Below are positions 43-60,361 of a stretch of DNA of 64,000 nt, one piece after another. Position numbers and translations under genes: made by a program. How positions within the stretch are numbered: the stretch's first letter is position 1; every line of letters starts with the position of its first letter. This DNA is from Nitrospinota bacterium (GTDB taxonomy: Bacteria > Nitrospinota > Nitrospinia > JACRGO01). The stretch spans positions 215-64,214 of the forward strand of contig JACRGO010000237.1 of assembly GCA_016212295.1 (NCBI GenBank), given 5' to 3'. Below the pieces are notes generated by a model. That model was not told where the DNA came from. It made no database searches and saw only the letters and a list, made by a program, of their open reading frames with translations.

Positions 43-420
43 TTATAAATTTTTTCGTATAGCCTCCGGCAAACGGGTAGGCCGTCCCCCCCGATTGACG
101 CATACAAGTTTGGCTGTCCCCTGGACTATTAATTTTCCGTCCCTTGGGCGTTCGATGCGGTGCGAGAAAGAGAAGCTGGCTTTCGTGATTCCGCCTATTT
201 CCGTTGAGATATGCAGCAGGTCCCCGTAATAGGCGGGAGATTTATAATCCATCTCAACGCGGCTTACGGTAAAAAGGCAACCGGATTCCATTAATGCCGC
301 TAAATCGATCCCTTTGTCCCGCATGAACTCCGTCCTGGCCCGCTCGAAATACCTTAAATAGTTGGCGTAATAAACCACGCCTCCGCAGTCGGTGTCCTCG
401 TAATAGATACGTATTTCCAT
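43..420 (-). CDS. acyl-CoA thioesterase, hotdog fold (YbgC/4HBT family)
   Basis: 125 aa. The layout and the 'YYEDTD..GVV...NY..YFE.AR' N-terminus are typical of YbgC-type thioesterases. Confidence 0.7.
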   Translation of the reverse strand: MEIRIYYEDTDCGGVVYYANYLRYFERARTEFMRDKGIDLAALMESGCLFTVSRVEMDYKSPAYYGDLLHISTEIGGITKASFSFSHRIERPRDGKLIVQGTAKLVCVNRGGRPTRLPEAIRKNL

Positions 421-427
421 GTCACTA

Positions 428-1222
428 TTACAAAAAAAGAATAATCACCAATGACCCGAAAATTATCCTGTACCATGCGAAGGAAATAAAAGTATATTTC
501 TTGATGAACGCCATGAACCAGGCGATCACCAAAAGGGCCACAGCCATGGACACCATGAATCCGATAACCAGCGTCTTCCATTGGTGGGGATTCAGGGTTC
601 CGAAATCCTTGAGGATGGAGTAGCCCGTGGCCGCGAACATGGTTGGCAGCGCCAGGAAGAAGGAAAACTCAACCGCTGCCGGCCGGTTCAGCCCGAAAAC
701 CAGTCCGCCAAGGATGGTCGCTGCGGATCTGGAAACTCCGGGTATCAGGGAAAGACATTGGGCGCAGCCGATCAGGAACGCCTGGCGAAAGAAGATGGCC
801 TCCACGTTCCCTTCCTGGCTTCCAAGGTCTTTTCTGCCTTCTATAATAAGGATGGCAATGCCTCCAAGGATCAGCGCGGCTCCCACGGTTGCGGGATTAA
901 AGAGATGGGCCTTTATCCATTTATGCATTAATAAACCTGCGGCAGCGGCAGGCAGGAAAGCCAGGAGAACGGAAAGGATGAAATTTCCGTGCATGGAATC
1001 CTTAAAGGATTTTTTTATGATTAAGAACAATTTTTCCCGGAAATATATAACCACGGAAAGTATCGCCCCCAACTGTATGGCGATATCGAAGGTTTTTCCG
1101 AATTCATTGTCAAAGCCAAGTAAGCGTCCTGCCACTATAAGATGTCCGGTGGAGGACACCGGGAGGAATTCGGTCAGCCCCTCCACTATGCCCAAGAGGA
1201 CGGCGGCCCCTAAATTCTCCAT
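428..1222 (-). CDS. uppP: undecaprenyl-diphosphate phosphatase
   Basis: 264 aa polytopic membrane protein. It has the conserved 'GLTEFLPVSSTGHL' and 'PGxSRSGxTI' motifs of the BacA/UppP family. Confidence 0.9.
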   Translation of the reverse strand: MENLGAAVLLGIVEGLTEFLPVSSTGHLIVAGRLLGFDNEFGKTFDIAIQLGAILSVVIYFREKLFLIIKKSFKDSMHGNFILSVLLAFLPAAAAGLLMHKWIKAHLFNPATVGAALILGGIAILIIEGRKDLGSQEGNVEAIFFRQAFLIGCAQCLSLIPGVSRSAATILGGLVFGLNRPAAVEFSFFLALPTMFAATGYSILKDFGTLNPHQWKTLVIGFMVSMAVALLVIAWFMAFIKKYTFISFAWYRIIFGSLVIILFL

Positions 1223-1590
1223 CGCGGATGTTCCTTTCTGATATAGGCCAGGAGCTGGGCATGGGTCTTGAAATGCACTTGAAAATTATATTCGTCGCTG
1301 TGGTACTCGCAGGAATCTATGCTGTGCTCCCGGCAGACATTCATGCGCTGGTGGTAAATCCCGCATTTATTGTCACTGCCCAGGAATTCGCAGCGACTTT
1401 CAAAGTGGATATACCATTTTTTCCTGTAGATATACGCCGATACCTTTTTATGGGCGACCTTCCAAAGCAGGTATTCAAAATCCTTTCTGGTCTCCGGGGT
1501 GTCTATCTCCATTCCGACATAAAGGCAGCATTTAGCCGGGAGGCACTCCTTGCATTGGTCTATCGGTTTTTTTTTTCGTTTTTTAGTCAT
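1210..1590 (-). CDS. YkgJ-family cysteine-cluster protein (UPF0153, putative Fe-S or Zn binding)
   Basis: 126 aa with a 'CKECLPAKCC' CxxCxxxxCC cluster plus further Cys and His residues. Its start overlaps the uppP stop, so the two genes are coupled in one operon. Confidence 0.55.
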   Translation of the reverse strand: MTKKRKKKPIDQCKECLPAKCCLYVGMEIDTPETRKDFEYLLWKVAHKKVSAYIYRKKWYIHFESRCEFLGSDNKCGIYHQRMNVCREHSIDSCEYHSDEYNFQVHFKTHAQLLAYIRKEHPRWRI

Positions 1591-2534
1591 ATATACAAAC
1601 TCTCTTCATAGCTCAGCATTGTTATTCCGTCCTTGAATTTTCCAATAACAGGCTCCAGGCCTGGCTGGTTGAACATTTTAACCGCGAAAAGGGGGAAATC
1701 GGCGCCTGCCTCCATTGTGAGCTGGATCGCCCCGGAAAAGCGTGGATTAATCTCGAAGAACATTATTTCGTCCCCGTTGACCTTGCACTGGATGTTGGCC
1801 GGCCCGATGACTCTAAGTTTTTCCACTATTTTAGCCCCGTAATCAATAAGGCGTTTGTCCTTTACCGTGCGCCCCTTGTCACAAACCCCCGCCCTTATCC
1901 ATAATCTTTCCCTTGGAACCACGGAAACGCAGCGGCCGTTCCTGTCGCAAAAGGCGTCTATGGTGAACTCCCTTCCCTGAAGAAAAGGCTGCACAATGGG
2001 ATCGCTTATATAGCCAAGAAAAAAGAGCAGTTCCTTTTCGTTTCTGACAGGGAAGGCATTGACGCTCCCCCTGCCGCATCGCGGCTTGATGAAAAGTGGA
2101 TATGCGATATCGCCCAAGGGGACTTCGTTCCTGAGCCAAGTCCTTGGGGTAGGAATATCGTTTTCAACAAAAAATTGATACGTGAGGAATTTATCATTGC
2201 ATATTTCGCAGGTCCTGGTCCCGGATACCAGGACCTCTACGCCTCCCATTTTAAATTCCTCCTTGTGGCTCCCGAAAAAAGGAAGTTCCTCGTCAATGGT
2301 TGGAACAATGAGGCCGATTTTTTCCTCGCGGCATATATTCCAAATAGTGTCCTTATAGGCAGGGGAGCTTGAAAGGGGGACTATATAGTGTTTTTCCGCC
2401 AGATATAGGCCGGGGGACAGCGGGTCAGCGTCGCTTGTGACGACCCTTCCCCCATTGCCGGCCTCGGATAATGTCTTTTGAAAGCCGCGGATGAGCGCGA
2501 TCCTTCGGGATGCGGCTGTGATGAGGACGTTCAT
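1587..2534 (-). CDS. ATP-grasp domain protein (carboxylate-amine ligase-like)
   Basis: 315 aa. It has a pre-ATP-grasp N-terminus and the 'FFEINPRFSG' Mg/ATP-binding motif typical of ATP-grasp enzymes. It overlaps the YkgJ gene by 4 nt. Confidence 0.7.
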   Translation of the reverse strand: MNVLITAASRRIALIRGFQKTLSEAGNGGRVVTSDADPLSPGLYLAEKHYIVPLSSSPAYKDTIWNICREEKIGLIVPTIDEELPFFGSHKEEFKMGGVEVLVSGTRTCEICNDKFLTYQFFVENDIPTPRTWLRNEVPLGDIAYPLFIKPRCGRGSVNAFPVRNEKELLFFLGYISDPIVQPFLQGREFTIDAFCDRNGRCVSVVPRERLWIRAGVCDKGRTVKDKRLIDYGAKIVEKLRVIGPANIQCKVNGDEIMFFEINPRFSGAIQLTMEAGADFPLFAVKMFNQPGLEPVIGKFKDGITMLSYEESLYI

Positions 2535-2741
2535 AAATTGTTACCGTATTAGCATGGCGTTTTATGAAATTTCAAATCTCAATTGTCAAATAACAAATAA
2601 ATCTCAACAACCAAAAGCAAAAAGAACAAACAAAGAAATGGAATTGTTTTGGACATTCGGTATTTGTAATTTGCAATTTATTTGTTATTTGAAATTTGTT
2701 ATTTGAAATTTTATTTTCCTTTTGGCTGCGGCGAAGCCGCT

Positions 2742-3749
2742 CTATGGACATTCCTTGCAAATATCCGGACAAAGATTGTTTTTAAAGGAATCCATGAAAC
2801 TCTTAAATAATTCTCCCCTTTTGATTTCGTCGAAGGGGTTTTCAAAAAGGTTTCCGAAATTGAACACTGTTGGGTCCATCCTCATGCAGCAAGGGGTGAC
2901 GAAGCCGTCGTACGTGATGAATATGCCCTTGCCGGGCCACCAGCATTCCCGGAACCTGGGGCTGGATCCGCTGAAACTGAATTCAAGCCCGTTCTTGCCG
3001 CAGATTGATTTTAATTGATCTCGCAGACGGATTTCCAATTTATCGTCCCTCAAAGGCGCTTGGACGGATTGAATGCGCTTCCTGATCTTCCGGTAATCCT
3101 CATTTATGCTTGCGGATTTATAATCGGGATTATACTGGACTGCCGCTGAAAACCGCATTTTATCCATGCCTAACTCCCTGGCGAAAGGCGGTATGTACGC
3201 CAGGGTATCTATATTTTCCTTTGAAATAACGGTTTGAAAGGACAGGGTAACGGAAAGGTTCCCGGCCCTTTTAATTTCCACGGCCATTTTTATGTTTTTC
3301 ACTATTTTTTCAAAATCCGCCCCTCTCCTGAGCCGCTGAAACAGGCTCTTTTCATTGGCGTCGAAAGAGATGACGAGTTCGTCAATGCCGCCCAAGAGTT
3401 TTTCCAGGTCAATCTTGTGAAGGTTCATGCCGTTGGTGCAGGTCCTTGCCCTTATGCCTTCCTCTTTAAGATACAAGGCCATGCCGGCTATTTCCGGGTT
3501 GAGCAAGGACTCGCCCAGGCCAATGAGCGAAACGTCGGTCAAAAAACGGTTGCCTTCGATTAATTTCCTCAAATTGGCCGGCGTGAGATGGCCTCTCCTT
3601 TGGGAGGCCAGCCCCTCGTTGTTGCAACTCCGGCATTTAAGATTGCAGAGCGTGGTGGGCTCAATGTGGGCATGGTAAGGGTATGCGCCTTCCTCTTGGT
3701 TGCTGTTCTGGGTTTTATATTCAGGCATTTTGTTTCGCTTAAGGATCAA
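2742..3749 (-). CDS. radical SAM enzyme with a C-terminal SPASM domain
   Basis: 335 aa. It has the CNLKCRSC (Cx3Cx2C) radical SAM cluster motif near the N-terminus and a Cys-rich SPASM-like C-terminus (TPCCM...CPDICKECP). Confidence 0.8.
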   Translation of the reverse strand: MILKRNKMPEYKTQNSNQEEGAYPYHAHIEPTTLCNLKCRSCNNEGLASQRRGHLTPANLRKLIEGNRFLTDVSLIGLGESLLNPEIAGMALYLKEEGIRARTCTNGMNLHKIDLEKLLGGIDELVISFDANEKSLFQRLRRGADFEKIVKNIKMAVEIKRAGNLSVTLSFQTVISKENIDTLAYIPPFARELGMDKMRFSAAVQYNPDYKSASINEDYRKIRKRIQSVQAPLRDDKLEIRLRDQLKSICGKNGLEFSFSGSSPRFRECWWPGKGIFITYDGFVTPCCMRMDPTVFNFGNLFENPFDEIKRGELFKSFMDSFKNNLCPDICKECP

Positions 3750-3850
3750 ATACTAAAAATTTTTTACCATGAAAATCAGTTTTTATTTTTTCTACATGGA
3801 TTTTTGTAATTTTCATCAGCAGGGGTGACAAATTATATATGTCATGGCGG

Positions 3851-4348
3851 TTAATTTTGTTTGCTGCCATGTCGCGCTATCTGGAGAATGCCGAGTAAAA
3901 TCATATTGGCCGAGGCAATGGCGACAGCGGCGAAAACCGCCAATGGAATGGAGGCAAACCGCCAAAGCGCCCTTTCCAGGATTTTTTTCAGCGGCAAGGA
4001 AATGACCTCCCCATTCTTATTGCACATAACAATTTGTCTTTTCCTGAAACGCAAGGCAAGGAGCAAGACGTTTTCATATCCGGCCCCGGACATATTGGAA
4101 ACCGGGACCACTACCAACGGGTAACTGTTCCTGGGAAAATCGCCAATGGCAAAGGGAGAAAAATCGCTGGCTGAGGGGTAGGTGATTATTGAATTGACGC
4201 CGCTCATTTGTTTCACGCTTTCCACGGAATGGGGATGGGCCAGGACGTCTATTCTAGCGCCTGGATACAGGGACGAGACCCTCCGGATCACCAGGGCCAG
4301 ATGCTGTATGGAAGTGGAGCGGATGATTAGGATGTTCATATCACCCAT
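3851..4348 (-). CDS. hypothetical protein, possibly a glycosyltransferase-associated domain (GT9-like N-terminus)
   Basis: 165 aa. The 'MNILIIRSTSIQHLALV' start resembles the N-terminal Rossmann half of heptosyltransferase-like GT-B enzymes, but the protein is only about half length. It overlaps the GT2 gene by 8 nt. Confidence 0.3.
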   Translation of the reverse strand: MGDMNILIIRSTSIQHLALVIRRVSSLYPGARIDVLAHPHSVESVKQMSGVNSIITYPSASDFSPFAIGDFPRNSYPLVVVPVSNMSGAGYENVLLLALRFRKRQIVMCNKNGEVISLPLKKILERALWRFASIPLAVFAAVAIASANMILLGILQIARHGSKQN

Positions 4349-5369
4349 AACTCATAAAAACCCATTTAACAGGAAGCCGGATTTTATCCAGGACCGTGCC
4401 GGCCACCACAACCCTGTTTCTGAAAATCATGGGAAGTTTCACAAAGGCGTCAAGGATGGCCTTGAGATAGATCGTTGTTCCCTGAGACAGGGAAAAAATC
4501 GCGGCATGGTAAAAAAAAGAAAACAAGATGGGCGCCATCCTGGAAGCCGGGAAGTACCGCCAAATGATCCAAAGCATGTTCCTCGTATAAAAATACGCGG
4601 CCCTGGAGGAGGTCCTTCCGGTTGGAGAGGCTTTATGGTAGGCAAATATATCCGGGAAGTGCTTTATGCGATAACCAGAGTTCCATATACGAAAGGAGTG
4701 GTCGAATTCGTTCAAATAGAGGAACAGGGGAGAGAACAGGGCCCCCGCCTTTTTCAGGCAATCCCTTCTGATCCCAACTCCGGCCCCATTGTAGCTTCCT
4801 GTTTCAGTGCCGCCTGAAGGATTAAATACTTGGCTGCCAGTTGCCGGTTGCCCGGCGCCGGTTGCCAGTGGTCGATTTTCAGGTTTTTCCCCTGGCGCTT
4901 GAGACTGGTGGTTGGGAACCTTTTCCAACCCCGCGTTTCGCACATCAAAAGCCACGGCCCCCAGGCCGGGTTGAGCTTGAAAAACCCTTACCATTCTTCC
5001 GATGGCCCAAGGGTCAGGATAGGAATCACTGTCCAGGAAAACCACGAATTCCCCTGAGGCCGATTCAAGGCCGTGGTTATACCCGCCGATCCCGATGTTT
5101 TCCTTTAGATAAATGTATTGCACGTCCGGGTGCGTTTCGCGAACTACTTTGTCCGTGCCATCTTCCGAGGCGTTATCCACAAGGATGATCTCCACTTCCT
5201 TGTAATCGGAACGCTTGATTTTTCCTATGGTCTCCAATGTGTCATCCTTGCGGTTCCAGGTGAGGATGATAACACTGACAAGATTGTTTTTATGCATATT
5301 CTTTCTATAGCGCGGCCATGCGCGCTCCACGAAGCGATTGAAAAATTCGCGTGGAAAACGCAAATTCAT
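4341..5369 (-). CDS. family 2 glycosyltransferase
   Basis: 342 aa. The GT-A signature 'VSVIILTWNR...DNASEDGT...VFLDSD' includes a DxD motif. Confidence 0.8.
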   Translation of the reverse strand: MNLRFPREFFNRFVERAWPRYRKNMHKNNLVSVIILTWNRKDDTLETIGKIKRSDYKEVEIILVDNASEDGTDKVVRETHPDVQYIYLKENIGIGGYNHGLESASGEFVVFLDSDSYPDPWAIGRMVRVFQAQPGLGAVAFDVRNAGLEKVPNHQSQAPGEKPENRPLATGAGQPATGSQVFNPSGGTETGSYNGAGVGIRRDCLKKAGALFSPLFLYLNEFDHSFRIWNSGYRIKHFPDIFAYHKASPTGRTSSRAAYFYTRNMLWIIWRYFPASRMAPILFSFFYHAAIFSLSQGTTIYLKAILDAFVKLPMIFRNRVVVAGTVLDKIRLPVKWVFMSYG

Positions 5370-5487
5370 TAACTAATAAATAAAACGTTGCTAAAGAAGC
5401 AAAGTTTCATGGGCTGGTAGTGAGGGGGCAGGGGACAGTTGCCAAAATCAATTTATGATTGAGAATTGGGAAGTTGCTGGAGACTGC

Positions 5488-5940
5488 TCACGCGACCTTT
5501 TGCTTAAGAAGGGTTACTTCCCTGAAAAGTTCGATATAACGGTTTTCAAGGGACCTGAATTGCTCCATATCCGGTTTGTTCTGGTAAAGCCCTCTCAGTT
5601 CCCGTATTTCGGCAAGGATATTGTTTATCTGCGATTCAATTGAGTCGAATCTTTTCATATTAAAATTGAAGTGGTCATCAAAGCGCGTGTTCATGTCCTT
5701 TCGCATATCCTCGAAGCGCGAGTTCATATCTGAGCGCATGTCCTCGAAACGCTTGTTGACGTCCTCGAAACGCGAGTTCATATCTGAGCGCATGTCCTCG
5801 AAACGCTTGTTGACGTCCTCGAAACGCTTGTCGATTCCGTCAAGGCGGGCCTCAACCACGGATATTTTTTCTTTTATAATGTCCAGTTCTGGAATGACCA
5901 CGGACCTTATCGCTTCTATAACTGCTTCCTTGATATCCAT
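5488..5940 (-). CDS. coiled-coil protein with internal tandem repeat (DUF1640-like paralog)
   Basis: 150 aa. Repeated 'NKRFEDMRSDMNSRFEDV' units are encoded by a perfect 60-bp tandem duplication at about 5708-5827. The protein shares the 'IDKRFEDVNKRxxDxRSxMNxRF' block with ORF 60362..60835. Confidence 0.55.
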   Translation of the reverse strand: MDIKEAVIEAIRSVVIPELDIIKEKISVVEARLDGIDKRFEDVNKRFEDMRSDMNSRFEDVNKRFEDMRSDMNSRFEDMRKDMNTRFDDHFNFNMKRFDSIESQINNILAEIRELRGLYQNKPDMEQFRSLENRYIELFREVTLLKQKVA

Positions 5941-6268
5941 GCTAGAAATTTATCAAAAAGCGGGCTTAAATGCAAGGTAATAGTTTACGGGGGCAGGGGA
6001 GTAGGCCAAAATTAGCCATTGGCCATTGGTTAAAGGCGAAGGGTGAAGGGATTTAAAATTCCAAATCTAAAATATCGTAACCGTTCACGGTTCAGGGTTC
6101 CAGGTTTTAGAAAACCCTGTATCCACGCTTATCTCCAAAACCCGCTTACCCATGCGGATTTTCATTGTGGAGCGCCCTAAAAAAACCTTGCAACATTGCC
6201 GTGTTTGACGGTTTTTCAACTCTGAACCTATAGCCTTGAACCCGTGAACGGATACAAAATATCTTTTG

Positions 6269-7564
6269 TCAGATTTTTCCCGCGTTGATCCTCTCCGCCG
6301 CAGCCTTGCCGCTTAAAAAGGCGTGGTCAAGGTTGAAGTAATTCCACTCGCCGTACCTTCCTATCGGAATAATATTATGTTCCTCCAGGAATTTCCTGAT
6401 CCCCTCCACGCAAGCGGTCCGGTTCTGGTCGAATACAATGTACCCGTACTCGATGTTCAAGTGGTCAGTTGCCAGGACCTCGCTTTCGCTTTTGATAAGC
6501 CCTGTCTTGACAATGTCGTTTATGGTCCGGCTGATTATGTTCTCCGCGTCAATCGGCTTGTGCTGGGAATGGGAAATTTCAGCGGTCAGGGAGGTAGTTC
6601 CCTCCGGGCAAACATAAGGAGACGCGTTGCTCTGTATGAACAGGCGTTGGAAGATGAATTTCTCTTCGGGATAATAGATCCAATGTTTGTCAGTGAGATT
6701 CTCCCGGTCGATGCCTATATTCACGCAATGGACTGATGTATGCCGCAGCAAATCCGCCATTTTTACGATCTCTTTCGGCGCGTCGATTATCTTCATCACC
6801 AAGTCCGGCAAGGGGATGGATGACAGCAGGAACTTGTATCCCATACTTTGGCCTGAGCTTAGCGTAATGCCTCGGTTCCTTACGTCGATTTCCCACAGCT
6901 CGGTTTTAAGGCAAAGGTCGGTATTTTTCAAACGTGGAAGGAAGGCGTCCATGAGCGACTGGCAGCCGCCGCGCAAGGGATAGCCGAATTGGGAGTTGGG
7001 GCCGTAACGGTCCTCAATGGAAGCCTTTGAGCCGCCGATAACGTCCTCAAGGCTGGGGACTTTCACCCTGTCTTCAATCCAGGAAAAATCCAAATGCTCC
7101 AGCGGCCTGGCCCATACCTTTTTGTTGTAAGGTCTCATGAAATGCTTTGCTATCCCGGCGCCGAAGTTTGCCTCTATCCATTCATCGAAGTTTTGGGGCG
7201 CGGCATTCCCCTTGTTTTCCAGCGCCGTTTTCAACCCCTGGATACATTCGTCTATGGTCTTTTGCGGCAGCCCGAACAGATTGCTCTGGAAGGGATATCT
7301 GGTGTAAACATCCTGGGAAAATATCCATGAGTTCCTTTCCTGGAAATGGTGGTTGCCAGGCAAAAGGTCCGCGAAGAGATTATTCGCGTACATATCCTTT
7401 GAAAAAAAGATATGCCCTGCATGGTCGAAGATAAAAAAGTCGACCTCCCTGGACCTCCCCAGTCCGCCGACGTTTTTTTCCTTTTCTATGAGAATACTGT
7501 TTTCCTTGAGGTGATAGGCGGCGCTAAGTCCGGCAGGACCGGCCCCTATTATTACAGTGCGCAT
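6269..7564 (-). CDS. FAD/NAD(P)-binding oxidoreductase (amine-oxidase or UDP-galactopyranose-mutase-like fold)
   Basis: 431 aa. It has an N-terminal 'VIIGAGPAGLSAA' dinucleotide-binding motif and a 'PYNKKVWARP' segment reminiscent of UGM-like flavoenzymes. Its 5' end overlaps the Maf-like gene. Confidence 0.65.
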   Translation of the reverse strand: MRTVIIGAGPAGLSAAYHLKENSILIEKEKNVGGLGRSREVDFFIFDHAGHIFFSKDMYANNLFADLLPGNHHFQERNSWIFSQDVYTRYPFQSNLFGLPQKTIDECIQGLKTALENKGNAAPQNFDEWIEANFGAGIAKHFMRPYNKKVWARPLEHLDFSWIEDRVKVPSLEDVIGGSKASIEDRYGPNSQFGYPLRGGCQSLMDAFLPRLKNTDLCLKTELWEIDVRNRGITLSSGQSMGYKFLLSSIPLPDLVMKIIDAPKEIVKMADLLRHTSVHCVNIGIDRENLTDKHWIYYPEEKFIFQRLFIQSNASPYVCPEGTTSLTAEISHSQHKPIDAENIISRTINDIVKTGLIKSESEVLATDHLNIEYGYIVFDQNRTACVEGIRKFLEEHNIIPIGRYGEWNYFNLDHAFLSGKAAAERINAGKI

Positions 7565-8940
7565 AATTCGCTCATGGAAAAGATGTCCTCCGCCATCCTG
7601 ATGGGAAGCCCCATGGAGTGGAAGTTGTAAAACTTTGTTTTTGAGTTGGCCAGGATTATTTGCTCAATATAGTTTCTGTAGCTGAAAAGATTCTGGTGCG
7701 CCGCGGCCTTGCCGCCGAATCTGTCTTTCGCCAAAACCGGTTTTTGAGATTGCATTTGATTTTGATGAAAATCATCCAAGGTAGGTCCTCCGATGGAATT
7801 TTGCCATGTCTTTCCCAAGGCGTTTCCGGACGCATGAAAGCGTTTCATTGAAAAACAGCAGTCCTGTCCGAAGAGGATGATGGGATTGAACCCAAAGCGC
7901 GCCATGAGGTCGAGTCCGACGCACGCCACTGATCCCCCTTCCTGGGTTTCGCCTTTTTGTGAAAATAATTCGGCGTCCCCGCCTAAATGTTTTTTTTGGG
8001 CGGAGGCTATAAAGACCATTTTTTTCCCCTTGTAATTCCTAACCACCTCAGGATTGGAGGCAGGGGTGAAAAGGAGAACGGAATCCTGTCCGAAGCATCC
8101 CTGAAAATGCGCCAAACTATGGCTTTGAGGGTCTATGCTTGCCACGAAGTCCGGGACAATGCCCGTCTCCACTAAAATGGGGAAAGCCGTGTCTGTCGCG
8201 AAAATGCCGGCTTTGCCCCTGAGTAATTCGAGGCAGGGCAGGGCAATGTCCAGTGACGGGCCCGCGCTTGCCAATATGCCTGTTTTCCCCGTAAACCTTC
8301 CGTAAAGCCCGGCCACTCCATCTGACTCCAAGGCCGTAGCGCGATTTTTTTGAAAATTTTTTTCTTCCAGGGCGGAAAATTCAACGCTTGTCCTTTTTTC
8401 CATCCGGACCAATTCGAAAATATTTTCAAAATCCTTGAACTCTCCAGGAATGGAGGAAAGAGAAGGGGGATGGATGAGAAGCTTGCCGTTTTCCTCCCGC
8501 AGGACCTTCAAGGCGAGTTCAAATCCTTTTAGCGCGGCTTCCCTGCTTGTCCCTAATAACATGGAAACGCGGGCATCTGAAAAAATTTTTTCCAGGTCCC
8601 TGCAAGAGCAAGCGGCTTCGAGTATTTCGCCGTTGAACTCCATTACCTGGAGTCTGCCGGATGGGCCGGTCCTGTCCAGGATGGCTTCCACATGATAGCC
8701 AAATCCAAACCCGTATATAAGGATGGAATCCCCTTCGGAAATTTGGGATTTTTCAGCGAATTGTCTCGCTTCCCCAACGGGGTCAAAGGCTGAATGGATT
8801 AATCTGTTCTTGTAGCGCAAGGTCCAATCGCCGGACTTGGTCTTGATGGTCGTGCTGTTTTCCGTTGACCCGCGCCTCAAAAATCCCTTGGCCCCAGGCG
8901 CTTTTTTTTCCAATGATTCTATGTTACCGGCTATTGGCAT
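7552..8940 (-). CDS. Maf/DUF115 (MptE-like) domain protein, putative flagellin or pilin glycosyl/nonulosonate transferase
   Basis: 462 aa. The N-terminal 'LIHSAFDPVGEARQFAE' motif is typical of motility-accessory-factor (Maf) proteins, followed by a central DUF115-like core. Confidence 0.55.
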   Translation of the reverse strand: MPIAGNIESLEKKAPGAKGFLRRGSTENSTTIKTKSGDWTLRYKNRLIHSAFDPVGEARQFAEKSQISEGDSILIYGFGFGYHVEAILDRTGPSGRLQVMEFNGEILEAACSCRDLEKIFSDARVSMLLGTSREAALKGFELALKVLREENGKLLIHPPSLSSIPGEFKDFENIFELVRMEKRTSVEFSALEEKNFQKNRATALESDGVAGLYGRFTGKTGILASAGPSLDIALPCLELLRGKAGIFATDTAFPILVETGIVPDFVASIDPQSHSLAHFQGCFGQDSVLLFTPASNPEVVRNYKGKKMVFIASAQKKHLGGDAELFSQKGETQEGGSVACVGLDLMARFGFNPIILFGQDCCFSMKRFHASGNALGKTWQNSIGGPTLDDFHQNQMQSQKPVLAKDRFGGKAAAHQNLFSYRNYIEQIILANSKTKFYNFHSMGLPIRMAEDIFSMSELCAL

Positions 8941-9301
8941 CTTTACGGAAAAAAATAAAATCGACTTGACAGGAAAGAAATTTGGTATAATACTTTTGTT
9001 ACCTTAACATTTTGGTAAAAAAGAATCAAAATTTGTAGCCGTTCACGGAAATTCCGGGGTTTTGCGTGAATTGAATAATTTCACATCCCCCTGGCCCCCT
9101 TTGCTAAGGGGGAATTAAAAGGGGATGTGCCCATTTACTAAGAGGGAGTTGGCAAAAAACGCTTGCGTCGCATAATTCCCCCCTATCAAGGGGGGGATTA
9201 AGGGGGGTTAACCAACGTAAGTAATGGAGTTAATTTCAATATATGGCGGCGCCCCGTGAACAGTTGCTAAAATTCACAATAGCCCTTTCAGGAGAAAAAT
9301 C

Positions 9302-11323
9302 ATGCATGGAAATAAAAACATGGCTCTGGCTAAAGTCGAAAGAATTCCAAAAAGCCAGGTAGAAAGACGCGGTAAAAAACTTTCCCTTGGTTTCCGCATA
9401 GGTCTTTCCATAGGAATATTCCTGGTCCTGTTTATCATCAATTTCATTTCAGCTTTTTGGGTGATCAAGGAGCAAAAGGACGATGGCGTTATCATCAACC
9501 TTGCCGGAAGGCAGAGGATGCTGACCCAAAAATACGTCAAGGAACTTGCCATTGATCTCATCCCGGAACAAGTGCGGCAGGCGGTCCTTAAATCGGCCAG
9601 GATCGCCACGAGACAGATCCAAGAGGACCGCGCGCTTTACACTAAATCCGTTGTTGGGAAAATGAAAAAAGAGCTGCCGGGATTTTCCGCCAGCCAGAAT
9701 TACCACGAAATTTCAGGCGCGGCGCCCCTTCCCGCGACTTTCGTCCGGGAAGTTTCAGAGGCCATACACGGCTCCGGCCTTTATAGTTACGATCTTTTGA
9801 GCAAATGGAATATCAATCCGAAAAAGGGGCTTCGGGACCCCTTTGAGCAGGAAGCCTTCGAGGAACTCCTCAGGACCGGGACCGGTTCATTCTATCGTTT
9901 CATGGATCACGAGGGCCGGTATGTTTTGCGTTTCGCGACCCCTGACAAGGCTTCGTCCCAGGCCTGCACTGATTGCCATAACAACAGCCCTGAAAGCGCC
10001 AAAAGGGATTTTAAATCAGGTGATCTGATGGGCATTCTCGTGGTCACCATACCGGTAAGCGATGACATCCGCCTTGCCAAGGCCCTTTTCAGCCAAGGAG
10101 CGGATGAGGGCGGCGTGGAGCAGGCCGGCTCCAGCGGCGGCACGGCCAAGGTTTTTGAAATGACCCTTGGCGCCTTGATAAATGGAGGGAAGGCCCCTTT
10201 GGACTTGGCGATGACACTGTTCTCGGACCTGCCGTCCCCGCCCCGCAAGGAGATTGAGGACGCCTTGAAAAATGTTGACAAACTCTGGAAGCAGATGGTT
10301 TTGGACGCGGGAGAATTGCGGCGGGCGGAGGTCAACACTCTGCCCTATCTTAAGGCGTTTCAATCCATCCGTGAGGTCAATTTAAAGGCATTGGATGAGA
10401 TGAACCTCGCCGTGGACGCCTTGCAAAAAGAATCCGACCGGAAGGTTTTTCTCCTGAAAACCACCCAGACCACGCTTCTGGTCCTCTCGGTCCTCGTTTT
10501 CCTGTTCATTCTTTCTTATGTCTTCAGGGGAATAGTGAAGCCTTTAAATAATATTGTCAATTCCCTCAGGGAGAGCATGGAAAACGTTTCCGACGCCTCC
10601 CTGGATATCAGCCAGAACAGCCAGGAAACGGCCGAAGGGGCCTCAAGGCAGGCCGCTGCCTTGCAAGAGAGTTCCGCTTCCCTTGAAGAGATTGCCGCCA
10701 TGGCGAAGGAGAATTCCGGCAACGCCGGAAAGGCGGACAAGTTGGCCGCTGAGACAATGGAGGCCGCAAGGGACGGCGAGGGGGCCATGAACAGAATGAT
10801 CGAGGCCATCCAGGCGGTCCGTGAGTCAGGCGGGAAGACATCGAAAATAATTAATGTCATCAATGAAATCGCCTTTCAGACCAATCTTTTGGCCTTGAAT
10901 GCCGCGGTGGAGGCAGCCAGGGCCGGGGAAGCCGGAAAGGGATTCGCCGTGGTGGCGGAAGAGGTCAGGAACCTGGCCTCCAGATGCGCTGCCGCGGCAA
11001 GGGAGACAAGCCAAACCGTGGAGGACTCGCTTAAAAAGACCGAGACAGGCGCGCTGATTTCGGCGGAGGTGGCAAAGGCATTGGGAGAGATCAGCGGCCA
11101 CGCCAAAAAAGTGAATGAATTTGTGGGCACGATCGCCGAGGCTTCCAAGGAGCAGGCGTCCGGGATAAGCGATATAAACAAAGCGGTTTCCGAGATGGAC
11201 CAAGTTACACAGCAAGCCGCGGCTGGTTCAGAGAGATTGGCCCAGTCAGCCCTTGACCTGAAAAACCAGGCAAGCATCCTGGCCGGGGCCATTGCGGAAT
11301 TGGACCATCTTGTTCATGGATAG
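9302..11323 (+). CDS. methyl-accepting chemotaxis protein with periplasmic heme-c (CxxCH) sensor domain
   Basis: 673 aa. It has an N-terminal TM helix, a PilJ/NIT-like '[13 protein letters not shown]' segment, a 'CTDCH' c-type heme-binding motif in the periplasmic part, a second TM helix, a HAMP domain and the MCP signalling domain ('[32 protein letters not shown]'). Confidence 0.85.
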
Positions 11324-11434
11324 GGATCAGGAAAACCAAGTGGTATCGGCTCGCGCTAATATTTGTCCATAGCGCTGCCATGAAACGTTTTACTTTTTGC
11401 CGCCTTTTTGAAATTTCAATATTTTTGGCTAGGT

Positions 11435-11908
11435 TTAGTATTCCTCGCCCCTTTCCTTGGCTGCGCCCACAGGCTCATGGAATTCTTCCCCGGCCTCTTC
11501 CCCCGCCTCCTCTACTTCCTGGCTGTAGAGGGTCTTTATTTTCGCCTCGTATTCTTCCTGGATTTTTTCCATCTCCTCCTGGAGTTTCAGAACGTCTCCG
11601 TGGAGTCTTTTGCCTTCCGCGAAAATTCCTTTAACGGTATCTTTTCCCATAATGTCTACTGATGGGTCCTGCTCCCTTAATGTGTAGACCTCGTTTCCAA
11701 GCCGCATCATAACCGCGTCCATTTCCTTTTTCATGGAATGGAGTCTTACCTGCATTCTGGCCAATTTGGCCTTCTCCTCCGCCTTCAAGGTGATCATGGA
11801 GGCCAGTGATTTAATTTTCATGTAGCCCTCGTCAAGATTTTTTTGTAGATTTTTCCACATAATACCACCTCCTTTATTCTTTTTGCTTCTTGTAAATAAT
11901 ATAATCAA
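11435..11908 (-). CDS. hypothetical coiled-coil protein
   Basis: 157 aa, charged and helical, with an acidic C-terminus. No recognisable catalytic motif. Confidence 0.4.
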   Translation of the reverse strand: MIILFTRSKKNKGGGIMWKNLQKNLDEGYMKIKSLASMITLKAEEKAKLARMQVRLHSMKKEMDAVMMRLGNEVYTLREQDPSVDIMGKDTVKGIFAEGKRLHGDVLKLQEEMEKIQEEYEAKIKTLYSQEVEEAGEEAGEEFHEPVGAAKERGEEY

Positions 11909-11956
11909 TTTTTTTGTTTTTTCAATGCCGCTTTTTAAAAAACCTTGACTATAATA

Positions 11957-12547
11957 TCATCCTATGAACCTTCTCACCCTTGGGACCAGGTCGTCCTTGA
12001 TAAGATGACATTTACTTTTCCGCAATCTTGCCCTGGCCCGATTAAGCCGGGATTTTATGGCGGCGATGGAAGTACCTAAAAGCGCCGCGGAATCCTGATT
12101 GGATTTTTCCTCAACCAGGCATAAGAACATTGTTTTTTTTTCCTTATCGCCAAGACCGCCAATGGATTCCAATAAAGATTCAAGGATTATTTTATTCGCC
12201 ACATAAATTAACGGATTATCCTCGCGGGAAGGACCCGGATATATTTCATGGTATTTCTCGGCCACCATGCCTATTTTCGACTCCTTCCTTATGCTCATCA
12301 GGCATTCGTTCACCGCGACCCGGTACAGCCAACTGCTCAGCTTGGAGTTTCCCTGGAAGCCGTCGATTTTTTCGTACACCTTTAAAAACACGTTCTGCGC
12401 CATGTCCTCTATTTCAAAGCGGCCTTTAAAATATTTCCGGCACACATAATGGACCATGGGCTTGTACTCGGTTATAAATGTCTCGAAGGCATCGTGGTCC
12501 CTGGCCCTCAAGCCGGCCAGCATCATTTGCTCCGCTGATTTTTTCAT
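11957..12547 (-). CDS. RNA polymerase sigma-70 factor, ECF subfamily
   Basis: 196 aa. It has region 2 ('YRVAVNECLMSIRK') and region 4 HTH segments characteristic of sigma-24-type factors. Confidence 0.85.
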   Translation of the reverse strand: MKKSAEQMMLAGLRARDHDAFETFITEYKPMVHYVCRKYFKGRFEIEDMAQNVFLKVYEKIDGFQGNSKLSSWLYRVAVNECLMSIRKESKIGMVAEKYHEIYPGPSREDNPLIYVANKIILESLLESIGGLGDKEKKTMFLCLVEEKSNQDSAALLGTSIAAIKSRLNRARARLRKSKCHLIKDDLVPRVRRFIG

Positions 12548-16034: not shown

Positions 16035-16437
16035 GGGCCAACCAATTTTAGATTTAAGATTTTAGATTTGGGATTTTAAATCCCTTCACACAATGACTCA
16101 ATGACCAATGGCTAATTTTCAATTGACAATTGAAAATAACCGAATCCCCTGCCAACCGCTTCCTGATAACTGCCTTTTTCATTACAAATCCGCAACGAGC
16201 GGAATTGGCAAATTCGCAATCCGCAATCCCAAGTTTCCTTGCCCCTTACGCCAGGATTTTAAATCCGGGGATGGTTTTTCCTTTAATTTTATTTTTTTAT
16301 TCTCACACAAAGGCACTAAGCCACAAAGAATCATAACCATTAACCGGGGGCAGTTGTCAGGGTACAGTTATCAGTAAATATCCGGCTTACAACCGCCTTC
16401 CGTTCTCTGCGCCTTTGTGCCTTGGTGTGAGTTATCT

Positions 16438-41457: not shown

Positions 41458-41616
41458 CGAAATTTGAAGCGCCAAATAACAAACATCAAATCACAAATAA
41501 GCTCCAAAAGCAAAATTCCAATAACAATCCTTGATTATTGAAATTTTGAGTTTATTTGAAATTTGTAGTTTGAAATTTGAAATTTTTGGTTTCTTGCATT
41601 AAGCTCAGGAGCTCCC

Positions 41617-51828: not shown

Positions 51829-52314
51829 TCATTCCAGAAGGACCAAGCCGAAGAATTGGGCGGTTTCAGGGTCATGGCTTAAATCGTACCCGAATTTTCT
51901 GACAGTGCCGAACACGTCAATGCCCATTGCTTCCATTGAGGGCCGCGCCTCCTCGGTCTTCACGCAAGGACGGTCATCCGGGCACTCCTCGCAGAGTCCG
52001 CATGGCCCTGACCCCATGCCGAATGCCTTGAAAAAACCCAGTTCCACGGCCTTTTTCTCTATCTCCGTTACCGCCCACCGTATCTTCCAGGATGCATGGT
52101 CGTGGATCAGCAGGGCGGTGTTGTATTCGGAAAAAATTTGCCTGGAGAAAAAGGGCGGGGGAGGAAATGGGGGGCAAGAGTACCTTTTACCGAACTCCCC
52201 GCACCCGTACCGGCACTTGAATAAAACCCAGGGCGCGGTTTGAATGTCCTTACTCTCAATGAGCAGGATTTCCTTGAGGTCCAGTTCTTTTTTCAAAGCC
52301 AGGAGATTTTTCAT
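51829..52314 (-). CDS. predicted metal-binding protein (DUF2284-like)
   Basis: 161 aa with Cys clusters 'CRYGCGEF...YSCPP' and 'CGLCEECP'. Confidence 0.45.
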   Translation of the reverse strand: MKNLLALKKELDLKEILLIESKDIQTAPWVLFKCRYGCGEFGKRYSCPPFPPPPFFSRQIFSEYNTALLIHDHASWKIRWAVTEIEKKAVELGFFKAFGMGSGPCGLCEECPDDRPCVKTEEARPSMEAMGIDVFGTVRKFGYDLSHDPETAQFFGLVLLE

Positions 52315-53578
52315 TTAATAAGCAGTCAAACAATTCATGAAGCTCCTCGGCCTTCTCATGCGATCCCTCAACGGGGCCGTCAATGTCCATGCCGCGGAAT
52401 TTATCGAAGACCCTTTGGGCCTCTACCTCCATTGTGGAATATATGCGTTGAATTTTTTTGTCGTGGAAGGGGTAATCGATAAAGTAAGGACTCCGCCCGT
52501 TCAGGTTGAGTTTTTGGACGTATCTTTTGTACATGGGCGTCCCGGCGTATAAAAAGACCTTGTGGGAAAGGAGCTGCGCCGCGTTGGTGGCGCAACGGAC
52601 CAGGCCGTTTCTCCGAAGGAACTTTAAATTTTCCCCTAATTCGGCCAGGGTCACCTCCGGATCGAACATGATGAACCCCGTGGAGAGTTTTATCCTTCTA
52701 TCCTGTATCAAGGCGATGGCCCTTTCATTCTGGTCCACCGTGGTCCTTTTATGAAAACGGTCCAAGGCGGATTGCGCGCCGGACTCAACCCCCAGAAAAA
52801 CTTCCGTGAGCCCTGCTTCCGCCAGGGGATCAATGGCGTCCGGCGAAACAGAATCGGCCCGGCATTCCAGTCCGAAGGGAATCCGGCGGCCTCTTTTCAT
52901 TATCTCCTTCGCCAATCCTGCGGCGTATATCCCTGCCTGCTTGCCTGGAGGAAAAAAGCAGGGATCAACAAAATATACCTTTTTAAATCCCTCCGCGACC
53001 CGTTGTTCCATCTCGTCCACTATGCCACGGGCGTCTCTCCCCTTGTAGCCATCGAAGAACCTCCCAGCGTAACAAAAGGTGCAATTTCCCCAGCAACCCT
53101 TGGACCCCAGCATAGGGGCGCATTCCCCTTTCTTTATCCTTGGGAAAGGGCCTGCGGTGCTCCCTTCTCCTAAAGGGTCCCCTTCAATGATGGAATCCAC
53201 GAAGGGAAATTCCCTCAGCAATTCATCCTTGAAAAAAGTCGGGTAGTAACCGAACAGGAAAAGCCTTGCCCTGGAAGAAGCCCTGATTTTCCGCAGGCTC
53301 TCCAGTATTTTCCCGGTGTTTTCCCATTGGAACAATAAATTCACATATATTTCTTCCGGTTTCATTTCGAGGAGGCGATTTTCAAAGGCGTCCAGGTCGC
53401 GCTCCCCGGAAGCGTCAAAATATCCGGCATCCAATCCCTGTTTTTTCAGCCTGGAGCAGGCGTATCCTGGCAAGAGACAAGAGGCAAGGGGGGCGTTGGA
53501 GACCACGTTGAAGTATCTCTGGGGCCGCAGGGCCGGGGGATCCACCACCACGGCGCGGGTTGATTTTAAGAACGGCAT
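52256..53578 (-). CDS. B12-binding-domain radical SAM protein
   Basis: 440 aa. It has an N-terminal cobalamin-binding-like domain and a 'CWGNCTFC' Cx3Cx2C radical SAM motif. Confidence 0.75.
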   Translation of the reverse strand: MPFLKSTRAVVVDPPALRPQRYFNVVSNAPLASCLLPGYACSRLKKQGLDAGYFDASGERDLDAFENRLLEMKPEEIYVNLLFQWENTGKILESLRKIRASSRARLFLFGYYPTFFKDELLREFPFVDSIIEGDPLGEGSTAGPFPRIKKGECAPMLGSKGCWGNCTFCYAGRFFDGYKGRDARGIVDEMEQRVAEGFKKVYFVDPCFFPPGKQAGIYAAGLAKEIMKRGRRIPFGLECRADSVSPDAIDPLAEAGLTEVFLGVESGAQSALDRFHKRTTVDQNERAIALIQDRRIKLSTGFIMFDPEVTLAELGENLKFLRRNGLVRCATNAAQLLSHKVFLYAGTPMYKRYVQKLNLNGRSPYFIDYPFHDKKIQRIYSTMEVEAQRVFDKFRGMDIDGPVEGSHEKAEELHELFDCLLNEKSPGFEKRTGPQGNPAH

Positions 53579-53882: not shown

Positions 53883-54662
53883 ATGAAAAAATCCTTATTT
53901 TTAGGGATCGTTATAATGGGCCTTTTAGGGATAAGCGCCTCCGCCGTTTATTCGCAGGAAACCATTACAACCGACCTCAAGAAAAAAATCAAGGAAATAG
54001 AAGTCAGGGGAAATGTAACTGTCCCAACGGATATAGTTCTCCCTCTTATCCACTTGAAAGTCGGGGATTACTTCAGTGAAGAGGCGCTCAAGGAAAACAT
54101 CAGCAGCATACTGAAACTCGGTGAGTTCGAGGGCGTGGAGGCAAGGCAGGTGGATGTCCCAGGGGGCATTAACCTCCTGTTTTTTGTCAAGGAGATAGAT
54201 AAACGCGTCCAGGCCATCAAGATAAAGGGAAACATGAAGACAAGACGTGATGAAATCAGGGGCCGCCTTCTGATTAACGAAGGGGACAAATACAACTACC
54301 AGTTGGTCCAGGAAGAAATTTCACGTCTTTACGGCACGCAGCAATTTGAAAAAGTCGAGGTTATCAAGAAGGATATTCCAGGTGGACTGGAACTCACTTA
54401 TGTGGTGACGGAGTTCCCCACGGTATCTGATCTTCCAACATCCACGAAATACGGCCCTGTAAAGTTTCAAACCCTGCCTTCCAAACCAGGGATACCTTAT
54501 GTAAGGTCCACCTCGGTTCCAGGCTTCACCGACAACGAAGACAAATTCCCCTTCATGAATAGAACGCCGGATTATTATAAGGATGAATTCTATACCGGAT
54601 CAAAACAGGGGCCTTTGATGTTCAGCATCGGCGCCTCCCACAATTTCCTGGGCTCCAAATAA
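53883..54662 (+). CDS. POTRA-domain protein (Omp85/TpsB-like N-terminal region) lacking a beta-barrel
   Basis: It has a signal peptide and two POTRA-like units ('IKEIEVRGNVTVPTDIVLPLIHLKVGDYFSEEALKENISSI' and 'IKIKGNMKTRRDEIRGRLLINEGDKYNYQLVQEEISRL'). It ends where a barrel would begin and overlaps the downstream minus-strand ORF. Confidence 0.55.
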   Translation: MKKSLFLGIVIMGLLGISASAVYSQETITTDLKKKIKEIEVRGNVTVPTDIVLPLIHLKVGDYFSEEALKENISSILKLGEFEGVEARQVDVPGGINLLFFVKEIDKRVQAIKIKGNMKTRRDEIRGRLLINEGDKYNYQLVQEEISRLYGTQQFEKVEVIKKDIPGGLELTYVVTEFPTVSDLPTSTKYGPVKFQTLPSKPGIPYVRSTSVPGFTDNEDKFPFMNRTPDYYKDEFYTGSKQGPLMFSIGASHNFLGSK

Positions 54663-55778
54663 ATCGTCAAATTTGTATTCTTCGGTTAAAAATGAGTTCA
54701 AGGCCATGTGGATAAGGCGGGGGTTCAGTCCGCGCTTGAGTCCCAAGCATATCTTTTCAAACATCTTCATCTTTATTTGAAGTTCATCCATCAGCGCCTT
54801 CTTTTTGTTTTTTAAAACCTCATCCGCATCCAACGGCATCCAGCCGTCCACCGCCATCAACAGGCCCTGATTCCAGTAAGGGGTTGACCCTTCAGCATAA
54901 GTTTCCAGGATCAATATGCCCTCATGTCTTGCCTTGCACACATACGCGACTATATTTTTTATAACCTCCCCATCGTTCATGGCATCGGTGATTGGCTTGG
55001 GTTCCTGCCGGCTTGTTTCCTCAAAAAACGCCTCGGCGGTTAATGGAGCGTCCGGAAACAACGAATTGAGTTTTTTCATTAGCAAATAGGGGTTGTCCCC
55101 ATCGCCAAGCCCTCTAATTCCAATTCGCATCATTTCCAATCTCCGCCCGGATTCGTATAAAACGGACCGGCGTTTTTTCTCCGCTTCCGAAACTATTTGC
55201 CCGGCGGAGCAATCATCCAGGGTCATTTCAAAGAGATACCTGCTGAAGGGATCTTTTATTTTGTCCATGATCGCGTCAAGAACAAGGGGGCTCTCTCTTC
55301 GGACTTCCCGGCAGACAGGGAGCCAGTATTTCATGATTTCCTTAAAGGAAGCCTTGGTTAAATAAAATTCTCCCATTTCCTCCCTGTCCCCTGATTTTTC
55401 CCGTTCTTCTTTATAGTCCCCAATTAAAACTTCCTTTTCCTGGCGCAAAATTATGTAACCCCTTTCTTCATATTTTCTGACGAGGCCAAGGATTTTTTCT
55501 TGAACTTCCTTGATCTCCTTTAAAAAGGGATATTTATCCGCGCTGGATTCATGAAATCGAGTATATTCCGCTAAAATGTATTCAATGGAACGCCTCCTTA
55601 CCCGGTTTACATTGTTTAAAACCCTTATTTGAAGTTGCTCAGGCTCATTTAACATGGCCAGGGCGATGGTATCATTGAGGAGCCCGTCCTCCCCGGAAGC
55701 GCCCCACAAAACTATTTGCAACGACCTGTCATCAAGAAGCCTCAGAATCTCTATTCCGTGTTTTTCAAATGGGTCCAT
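54600..55778 (-). CDS. hypothetical protein
   Basis: 392 aa, helical and soluble, with no recognisable motif. Confidence 0.4.
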   Translation of the reverse strand: MDPFEKHGIEILRLLDDRSLQIVLWGASGEDGLLNDTIALAMLNEPEQLQIRVLNNVNRVRRRSIEYILAEYTRFHESSADKYPFLKEIKEVQEKILGLVRKYEERGYIILRQEKEVLIGDYKEEREKSGDREEMGEFYLTKASFKEIMKYWLPVCREVRRESPLVLDAIMDKIKDPFSRYLFEMTLDDCSAGQIVSEAEKKRRSVLYESGRRLEMMRIGIRGLGDGDNPYLLMKKLNSLFPDAPLTAEAFFEETSRQEPKPITDAMNDGEVIKNIVAYVCKARHEGILILETYAEGSTPYWNQGLLMAVDGWMPLDADEVLKNKKKALMDELQIKMKMFEKICLGLKRGLNPRLIHMALNSFLTEEYKFDDLFGAQEIVGGADAEHQRPLF

Positions 55779-60322: not shown

Positions 60323-60361
60323 TTGACAACCCTTTCCGTTTTCTTTTAAGATTAAACCATT

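Follow-up and report, generated by a model that had tools for sequence, protein, structure and literature searches.

A Nitrospinota gene cluster combining a Maf-type transferase, a Twitch radical SAM enzyme and an ATP-grasp ligase, with a probable role in protein glycosylation

The stretch analyzed here, hereafter the window, comprises 64,000 nucleotides of contig JACRGO010000237.1 (positions 215 to 64,214) from the Nitrospinota bacterium assembly GCA_016212295.1. A block of genes at 1210-8940 encodes, among others, a motility-associated-factor (Maf) type transferase, a UDP-galactopyranose mutase (UGM) homologue, a glycosyltransferase of family GT2, a conserved protein termed unk165, a radical S-adenosylmethionine (SAM) enzyme and an ATP-grasp ligase. 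This cluster probably serves to decorate a glycan on Ser/Thr residues of a protein, and flagellin is the most likely target. The original prediction, made from the sequence of the window, had proposed the modification of a surface-protein glycan, and had pointed to the maturation of a peptide that is ribosomally made and then modified post-translationally (RiPP) as well. The glycan part of this proposal is supported by orthologous cassettes, which in other genomes lie beside genes for NeuB, a PseG-like protein, a CMP-transferase, flagellin and FliD. The RiPP part is not.

Loci carrying relatives of the radical SAM enzyme were sampled from 185,579 species genomes, which gave 10 loci, and by a metagenome scan, which gave 61 more. 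Gene-by-gene annotation covered these loci except for the high-GC loci L026, L029 and L059. The core order UGM, GT2, unk165, radical SAM, ATP-grasp is present in the Nitrospinota loci L002, L006, L016-L020, L022 and L064. The core is rearranged in Heliobacterium mobile (L004), where the order is GT2, unk165, Glf, NeuB, ATP-grasp, radical SAM, and a flagellin gene is found alongside. A metagenome-assembled genome of Clostridiales (L008) contains only the radical SAM/ATP-grasp pair. Pairing of these two genes is seen in L002, L003, L004, L008, L012, L016-L018, L020 and L034. NeuB adjoins the ATP-grasp gene in all seven orthologous loci that reach at least 1 kb past it. L003 and L018 run on into genes for a PseG-like protein, a GFO/IDH/MocA oxidoreductase, a CMP-sugar cytidylyltransferase, flagellin and FliD. 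The pair of L008 is located between PseC and NeuB, inside an operon of PseB, PseC, NeuB, CMP-transferase and PseG-like genes, and no gene for a PseH-type acetyltransferase is seen in this operon. Sugar enzymes are conserved neighbors in 15 or more loci. More distant radical SAM relatives, with 28-35% identity, are found near NeuB or CMP-transferase genes (L024, L026, L027, L029, L031 and L059) or immediately after Glf (L023 and L025). The recurrence of NeuB, PseG, CMP-transferase, flagellin and FliD as neighbors indicates that the cassette recurs as a component of islands for nonulosonic-acid and flagellin glycosylation.

Defence or mobile genes directly precede the UGM gene, on its upstream side, in L019 (81-7096), L006 (3925-5064) and L001 (1-5371). 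They encode a UvrD-like helicase, an N6/N4 DNA methylase, DUF3800, a ResIII helicase, a TnsA-like endonuclease, a DUF1016/YhcG nuclease, Fic/RhuM and ORF6N proteins. The edge of the glycosylation cassette looks like an insertion hot spot. In H. mobile L004, the GDP-mannose-dehydratase/epimerase-like gene after the radical SAM gene is split into two open reading frames (ORFs), 10953-11477 and 11553-12041. A frameshift, the decay of the gene to a pseudogene, or a fault in the assembly could each explain the split.

The Maf-type call was made in the original prediction and stands. The MptE-like/DUF115 core (PF01973) is matched at residues 195-364 with 131.7 bits, where 34.6 is the cut-off. The match to PF20157 (Maf_flag10_N) is borderline, 21.2 bits and just below the cut-off of 23.5. 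The AlphaFold2 model has a pLDDT of 91.7, and its closest fold in PDB is 5mu5, the Maf of Magnetospirillum (E = 1.3e-18, 532 columns). The runners-up are archaeal MptE kinases, with 1.8e-5 and for the central domain only, so that 5mu5 surpasses them by 13 orders of magnitude. Judged from the predicted model, the assignment holds at the fold level, for the Maf N-terminal domain as well as for the overall fold. An ordinary lipopolysaccharide or capsule neighborhood with a failing Maf assignment, the outcome specified beforehand as speaking against the original prediction, is not what is seen; the Maf call survives the fold comparison.

The homologues of this protein, 460-510 aa in length, constitute a short-form subfamily; PF20157 is present in many of them, and their NCBI name is Maf family. 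One homologue with 38% identity (P0031) is encoded at the end of a flgA-flgH-flgI-flgJ-flgN-flgK-flgL-csrA-fliW operon (L079). Three homologues from Nitrospinaceae are surrounded by housekeeping genes. In two of these three loci, a separate gene for a tetratricopeptide repeat (TPR) protein of about 205 aa lies 3' of the Maf gene (L014, 11419-12051; L078, 7731-8342). This separate protein could be the split counterpart of the C-terminal, flagellin-binding TPR domain of Shewanella Maf-1. The arrangement of chemotaxis receptor, Maf and UGM genes is retained in L013, which represents a 57%-identical relative, and the synteny of Maf and UGM is also seen in L077.

The radical SAM enzyme is 335 aa long, and its true start is probably the ATG at 3728. 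The core motif CX3CX2C is at C35, C39 and C42. The original prediction described the protein as a SPASM-domain enzyme. Its radical SAM nature and a match to Pfam SPASM (47.8 bits) are both seen; the seven-cysteine SPASM arrangement is not. Instead, the C-terminal domain contains five conserved cysteines (269, 287, 288, 331 and 334) in the arrangement of a Twitch-type domain. C269, C287, C331 and C334 align with C169, C187, C232 and C235 of BtrN, which we take to be the ligands of the single auxiliary cluster that defines the Twitch domain. Among 142 relatives, these four cysteines are at least 96% conserved, and the additional Cys288, next to the second ligand, is kept in 132 (93%). Most relatives have five or six cysteines in the auxiliary domain. 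When the profile of the subfamily is compared with PDB, the best match is BtrN (E = 6e-18, 68 bits), although it is partial and consists of two stretches. By its sequence the enzyme is therefore of the BtrN-type Twitch class, with CX3CX2C and a four-cysteine auxiliary domain. It is not an orthologue of BtrN, as the similarity is partial and no aminocyclitol genes are nearby.

BtrN is the dehydrogenase acting on 2-deoxy-scyllo-inosamine in butirosin biosynthesis. HygY and NeoN are Twitch radical SAM sugar epimerases in which a cysteine is the hydrogen-atom donor. By analogy with these three enzymes, we infer that the enzyme of the window may be a dehydrogenase or epimerase that abstracts hydrogen from a sugar C-H bond.

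The wider family of this enzyme is large, with 3,743 cluster representatives at E <= 1e-30 in an exhaustive HMMER search. This number overturned an earlier impression, based on 14 word-indexed matches, that the family is rare; only the close subfamily is rare. Among the relatives P0153, P0161, P0168, P0190 and P0224 there are giant proteins with two to four tandem radical SAM-SPASM units. A B12-binding domain is present in one, and fusion to a class-III aminotransferase is seen in two. The aminotransferase fusions fit a BtrN-like logic, in which an alcohol is oxidized and then transaminated.

The ATP-grasp ligase matches PylC-like_N (84.8 bits) and ATPgrasp_Ter (83.2 bits). Against NF009405 (PRK12767.1-4) it reaches 299 bits, with the cut-off at 390. 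The nearest solved relative is an uncharacterised protein of the carbamoyl-phosphate-synthase-like type, PDB 2pn1 (E = 3.2e-45). ATP-grasp genes have precedents in flagellin modification. In Clostridium difficile, the type B flagellin glycan has a peptidylamido-sugar part that depends on the ATP-grasp gene CDR20291_0245 (PMC5207246), and in Shewanella oneidensis, the ATP-grasp gene for SfmE is in the sfm operon, beside a Maf gene (PMC3765264). By analogy, the natural reading is that the ligase of the cassette would form an amide, either on an amino sugar or on a sugar acid. In L008 it may take the place of PseH.

The original prediction listed an FAD oxidoreductase next to the Maf gene. It is an FAD enzyme, and can be specified further as a UGM homologue. 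The match to PDB 3ute, the UGM of Aspergillus fumigatus, has E = 2.6e-66, and that to PDB 4dsg, the UGM of Trypanosoma cruzi, has E = 2.5e-59 over residues 3-425. The FAD-binding GxGxxG motif is VIIGAGPAG at residues 4-12. Bacterial Glf (PDB 1i8t) matches with E = 1e-6 only. From these comparisons the enzyme is placed as a full-length homologue of solved UGMs in the eukaryote-like branch, not in the branch of bacterial Glf. A classical Glf (PF03275) occupies the position of UGM in H. mobile L004. The GT2 protein is kept in every copy of the cassette with 39-60% identity. Its matches in PDB are generic for the GT-A fold, and it resembles GlfT1 weakly (E = 1.6e-5).

From the observed identities and folds of these proteins, their purifying selection, the synteny of the core, and its position next to NeuB, PseG, CMP-transferase, flagellin and FliD in other genomes, the following route can be proposed; which protein is the target here, which sugars are donated, what type of reaction the radical SAM enzyme carries out and what the ligase uses as substrates are all part of the proposal. 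The Maf enzyme would transfer a CMP-activated nonulosonic acid, of the pseudaminic or legionaminic type, onto Ser/Thr of the target protein. The UGM-like mutase would produce a nucleotide-furanose, which the GT2 enzyme would attach to the glycan, aided by the membrane-anchored, half-GT-B-like unk165; the furanose could in this way reach a flagellin glycan. The Twitch radical SAM enzyme would abstract hydrogen from a sugar C-H bond as a dehydrogenase or epimerase in the style of BtrN or HygY, with Cys288 as the candidate hydrogen-atom donor. The ATP-grasp enzyme would join a carboxylate and an amine as an amide, for example an amino or hydroxy acid on the amino group of the nonulosonate. It is possible, and proposed here tentatively, that the last two enzymes jointly make an undescribed derivative of the nonulosonic acid or of the attached furanose. 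An example would be a radically epimerised or oxidised sugar with an amide-linked amino or hydroxy acid, in which the ATP-grasp enzyme replaces PseH.

Several facts weigh against protein glycosylation, and some of them suit another glycan equally well. The 64-kb window has no flagellin gene, and tblastn with PseB, PseC, NeuB, PseG-like and CMP-transferase queries from L003 and L008 detects none of these genes in it. Linkage to flagellin and the CMP-nonulosonate pathway is thus seen in relatives only, for Maf in L079 and for the cassette in L003, L004 and L018. No Maf is detected in any of 70 cassette or radical SAM loci with a hidden Markov model built from 120 Maf homologues. As the flagellin-linked cassettes are without Maf in their available flanks, the Maf link appears specific to the lineage of the window (L013 and L077). 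Known Mafs recognize flagellin through either a C-terminal TPR (Maf-1) or the four-helix adaptor GlfM encoded in cis (Maf-2) (bioRxiv 10.1101/2023.12.03.569772). The Maf of the window stops at residue 462 with no TPR match in Pfam, and no GlfM-like adaptor is recognised by sequence near it. What the radical SAM enzyme catalyses and what the ATP-grasp ligase acts on are drawn from family analogy only. The product might instead be a lipid-linked envelope glycan, such as an O-antigen, a capsule or a general protein O-glycan like that of Tannerella forsythia, with the Maf-like enzyme adding nonulosonic acid to an undecaprenyl-linked oligosaccharide. In T. forsythia, an O-glycan is reported to be the target of Maf-like nonulosonate transferases (PMC5420450). 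The joining of uppP to the cluster through overlapping genes and the C-terminal transmembrane helix of unk165 fit such a glycan equally well. The same is true of distant radical SAM relatives in polysaccharide loci with a flippase; the relative in L027 (31% identity) is accompanied by a MatE/Wzx-like transporter, a GT4 glycosyltransferase, a NeuC-like epimerase and deacetylases. The window without any flagellar gene is also in line with it. However, an initiating phosphoglycosyl transferase, a flippase, a polymerase and an oligosaccharyltransferase are all absent from 1-9 kb by Pfam and NCBIfam, true orthologues of the cassette adjoin flagellin and FliD rather than envelope-polysaccharide genes, and a short-form Maf homologue resides in the flagellar operon of L079. 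An envelope glycan is therefore considered unlikely, though it deserves serious attention.

The chemistry of the cluster could also belong to a metabolite or a peptide. Glycosyltransferases, together with an amide ligase and a dehydrogenase of the BtrN type, could build a small molecule resembling an aminocyclitol, an aminoglycoside or a nucleoside sugar; BtrN is the best solved relative of the radical SAM enzyme, aminotransferase fusions occur among its relatives, and the ATP-grasp enzyme is of the metabolite-making PylC-like/Ter-pathway type. By Pfam and NCBIfam, however, the cluster has neither an inosose synthase nor an aminotransferase nor a gene for export. It does include a Maf-type protein glycosyltransferase, and the linkage of the cassette to NeuB and flagellin genes is consistent. 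Such a pathway is improbable. RiPP maturation, in which a SPASM radical SAM enzyme and an ATP-grasp ligase would crosslink a ribosomal precursor peptide before its glycosylation, is suggested by the SPASM match, by NCBIfam similarities, all of them weak, to PqqE, AlbA and maturases of sactipeptides, and by the fact that graspetides are made by ATP-grasp ligases (PMC8939145). Yet the NCBIfam maturase scores are all far below their cut-offs. Only 34 residues precede CX3CX2C, leaving no RiPP recognition element or PqqD-like domain, and no protein of the cluster matches PqqD. The auxiliary domain is a five-cysteine Twitch of the BtrN type. The ligase is not of a graspetide type either: it consists of PylC-like_N/ATPgrasp_Ter domains, has no precursor gene, has sugar enzymes as partners, and has its precedent in the tailoring of flagellin glycans. 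The original prediction had already noted that no precursor peptide gene was found; in the spacers examined, 5900-6300 and 8930-9310 besides the palindromic one, there is a DNA repeat, or there are ORFs of 22-56 aa that are not conserved, and neither a conserved small ORF nor a plausible precursor is seen. The peptide hypothesis is thus scarcely credible. Protein glycosylation, most likely of flagellin, is retained as the probable function.

The minus strand from 43 to 8940 contains ten head-to-tail genes, and the features of this region are summarized in Table 1. All seven genes named in the original prediction were recovered on this strand at the same coordinates, with domain families supported by Pfam and NCBIfam; the coiled-coil gene had been overlooked. 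The block had also been described as largely translationally coupled, which is an overstatement. Three of the seven internal junctions are overlaps, of 13 nt (Maf/UGM), 8 nt (GT2/unk165) and 4 nt (ATP-grasp/CxxCxxCC), whereas at the remaining four the genes are 101-328 bp apart. The block continues downstream without a break into uppP, which overlaps the CxxCxxCC gene by 13 nt, and then into a ybgC-like thioesterase gene. The neighbor uppP is possibly co-transcribed with the cluster, and the downstream CxxCxxCC, uppP and ybgC genes are probably housekeeping neighbors. The CxxCxxCC gene is outside the conserved cassette. Besides the window it is seen only in L012, and NeuB is at that position in other loci. 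Its protein has no match in PDB. Compared with a close relative (loci L012 and L077, 88-94% nucleotide identity), the ratio of nonsynonymous to synonymous substitution rates is 0.05-0.36 for every gene. These values indicate that the genes of the cluster are working genes under purifying selection.

Table 1. Features of the cluster and its flanks (positions in the window).
Feature	Position	Strand	Basis
UppP, undecaprenyl-diphosphate phosphatase, neighbor	428..1222	-	NF001389, 316.5 bits vs cut-off 262
CxxCxxCC (YkgJ-family) small metal-binding protein	1210..1590	-	PF03692, 30.5 bits vs cut-off 23
ATP-grasp carboxylate-amine ligase, 315 aa	1587..2534	-	PylC-like_N, ATPgrasp_Ter and ATP-grasp_3 matches
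Palindromic element of CAAATNN heptamers, MITE/REP-like, non-coding	2536..2744	.	Inverted arms, fold, absence in L012
Radical SAM enzyme, BtrN-like Twitch auxiliary-cluster domain	2742..3749	-	PF04055 and PF13186 matches
unk165, conserved 165-aa protein: GT-B (GT9) N-half-like Rossmann domain and C-terminal transmembrane helix	3851..4348	-	
GT2-family glycosyltransferase, 342 aa	4341..5369	-	PF00535, 86.4 bits
Coiled-coil protein, 150 aa, RFED(V/M)-type repeats, lineage-specific	5488..5940	-	Weak Pfam coiled-coil matches
UGM-like flavoenzyme (putative nucleotide-sugar pyranose/furanose mutase), 431 aa	6269..7564	-	PDB 3ute, 4dsg
Short-form Maf-type nonulosonic-acid glycosyltransferase (predicted), 462 aa	7552..8940	-	PF01973, fold match 5mu5
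Methyl-accepting chemotaxis protein, divergent neighbor	9302..11323	+	PF00015, Tll0287-like and PilJ matches

The coiled-coil gene sits between two long spacers. Its counterpart in the close relative L077 (3044-3421) encodes 125 aa, and relative to that form a segment of 75 bp (25 aa, VNKRFEDMRSDMNSRFED...) is tandemly duplicated, in frame, in the gene of the window. No such gene lies between UGM and GT2 in L006, L016, L019 and L022, and it is missing from all other cassettes besides L077; it is a lineage-specific addition. The protein has no sequence match to FliS, FliT or GlfM-like proteins. By its position only, it is a candidate for an adaptor of Maf.

The spacer between the radical SAM and ATP-grasp genes was correctly recognized in the original prediction (as 2535-2741) as a palindromic repeat and not a peptide. 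The two arms (2564-2630 and 2648-2714) are 67 nt each and 73% complementary, and form an imperfect hairpin with a predicted RNA folding energy of -47.7 kcal/mol (z = -3.8). The arms are built of arrays of the heptamer CAAATNN facing their complements. The array pattern has 16 matches against 0.57 expected. A sister palindromic element is located at 41473-41579, and fragments are found at 6055-6073 and 16052-16077. The close relative L012 lacks the palindrome, and there the stop of the radical SAM gene overlaps the start of the ATP-grasp gene; the palindrome is therefore an insertion and, like the coiled-coil gene, specific to this lineage. It is a dispersed intergenic repeat, not a peptide gene, and could be related to miniature inverted-repeat transposable elements (MITE) or repetitive extragenic palindromes (REP), or could be a protein-binding array.

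Some other genes of the window deserve mention. The chemotaxis receptor next to Maf has a Tll0287-like periplasmic domain with the motif CTDCH (CxxCH), which suggests a haem-c-binding sensor of redox state or gas. A second radical SAM protein, of 440 aa and without a SPASM match, is encoded on the minus strand at 52256-53578. It is similar to B12-binding radical SAM proteins that are found beside distant relatives of the cassette enzyme in L007 and L009. The minus strand of the region 54600-62784 contains seven ORFs in a row, 239-410 aa long, that have no Pfam match at E <= 1e-5; they are bordered by genes for a POTRA-domain protein and a TPR protein.

Glycans based on pseudaminic or legionaminic acid (Pse/Leg) on flagellin and surface proteins influence filament assembly, recognition by phages and the immune system, and strain diversity. 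To our knowledge, the tailoring of such glycans consists of acetylation, amidination, methylation and acylation, and we know of no radical-based step among them. In the full-text literature, no paper was found in which a radical SAM enzyme is connected with pseudaminic acid, legionaminic acid or flagellin glycosylation islands; the matches combining radical SAM and glycans are only unannotated mentions of radical SAM genes in surface-glycan loci of Campylobacter. The full-text literature likewise yielded no description of a eukaryote-type UGM homologue in flagellin glycosylation islands. A new class of sugar modification is suggested by the conserved radical SAM/ATP-grasp pair inside glycosylation islands, and the pair also gives a sizeable family of Twitch radical SAM enzymes its first biological context. 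Should the two enzymes jointly make the tentatively proposed derivative, a radical SAM step would be involved for the first time in the biosynthesis of sialic-acid-like or flagellin glycans, common to anaerobic Nitrospinota, heliobacteria and clostridia. One carrier, H. mobile DSM 6151, is cultivable, so that the prediction is directly testable.

What is known in this cluster is the Maf/nonulosonate glycosylation island, and what is new is the tailoring set of a Twitch radical SAM enzyme, an ATP-grasp ligase, a eukaryote-type UGM and a half-GT-B protein. Maf-dependent Pse/Leg flagellin islands of Campylobacter, Aeromonas, Shewanella, Clostridium and Magnetospirillum share with it the MptE-like core and the fold of the Maf N-terminal domain. 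Extra glycosyltransferases and tailoring genes, typical of those islands, are also shared, and the orthologous cassettes likewise lie beside NeuB, PseG-like, CMP-transferase, flagellin and FliD genes. The Maf of the window is shorter, however, with 462 aa against about 600-650 aa, and is without TPR and recognisable GlfM. The cluster adds the Twitch radical SAM enzyme and the eukaryote-type UGM homologue, and genes for flagellin and nonulosonate synthesis are absent from the window.

Individual components have their own counterparts. The radical SAM enzyme resembles BtrN, HygY and NeoN in CX3CX2C, the four aligned cysteines and the carbohydrate context. It differs from BtrN in its length (335 aa vs 250 aa), in the near-invariant Cys288, and in its partners: ATP-grasp, GT2 and NeuB accompany it, and aminocyclitol genes do not. 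By their description, CDR20291_0245 and SfmE are likewise "carbamoyl-phosphate-synthase-like" ATP-grasp genes in flagellin modification loci. Their systems have no radical SAM partner, and the glycan of C. difficile is not based on nonulosonic acid. Pairs of UGM and GT2 galactofuranosyltransferase of the Glf/GlfT type are paralleled by the full-length UGM homologue near the GT2 gene, whereas the flavoenzyme of the window belongs to the eukaryote-like branch and its GT2 partner is only weakly similar to GlfT1.

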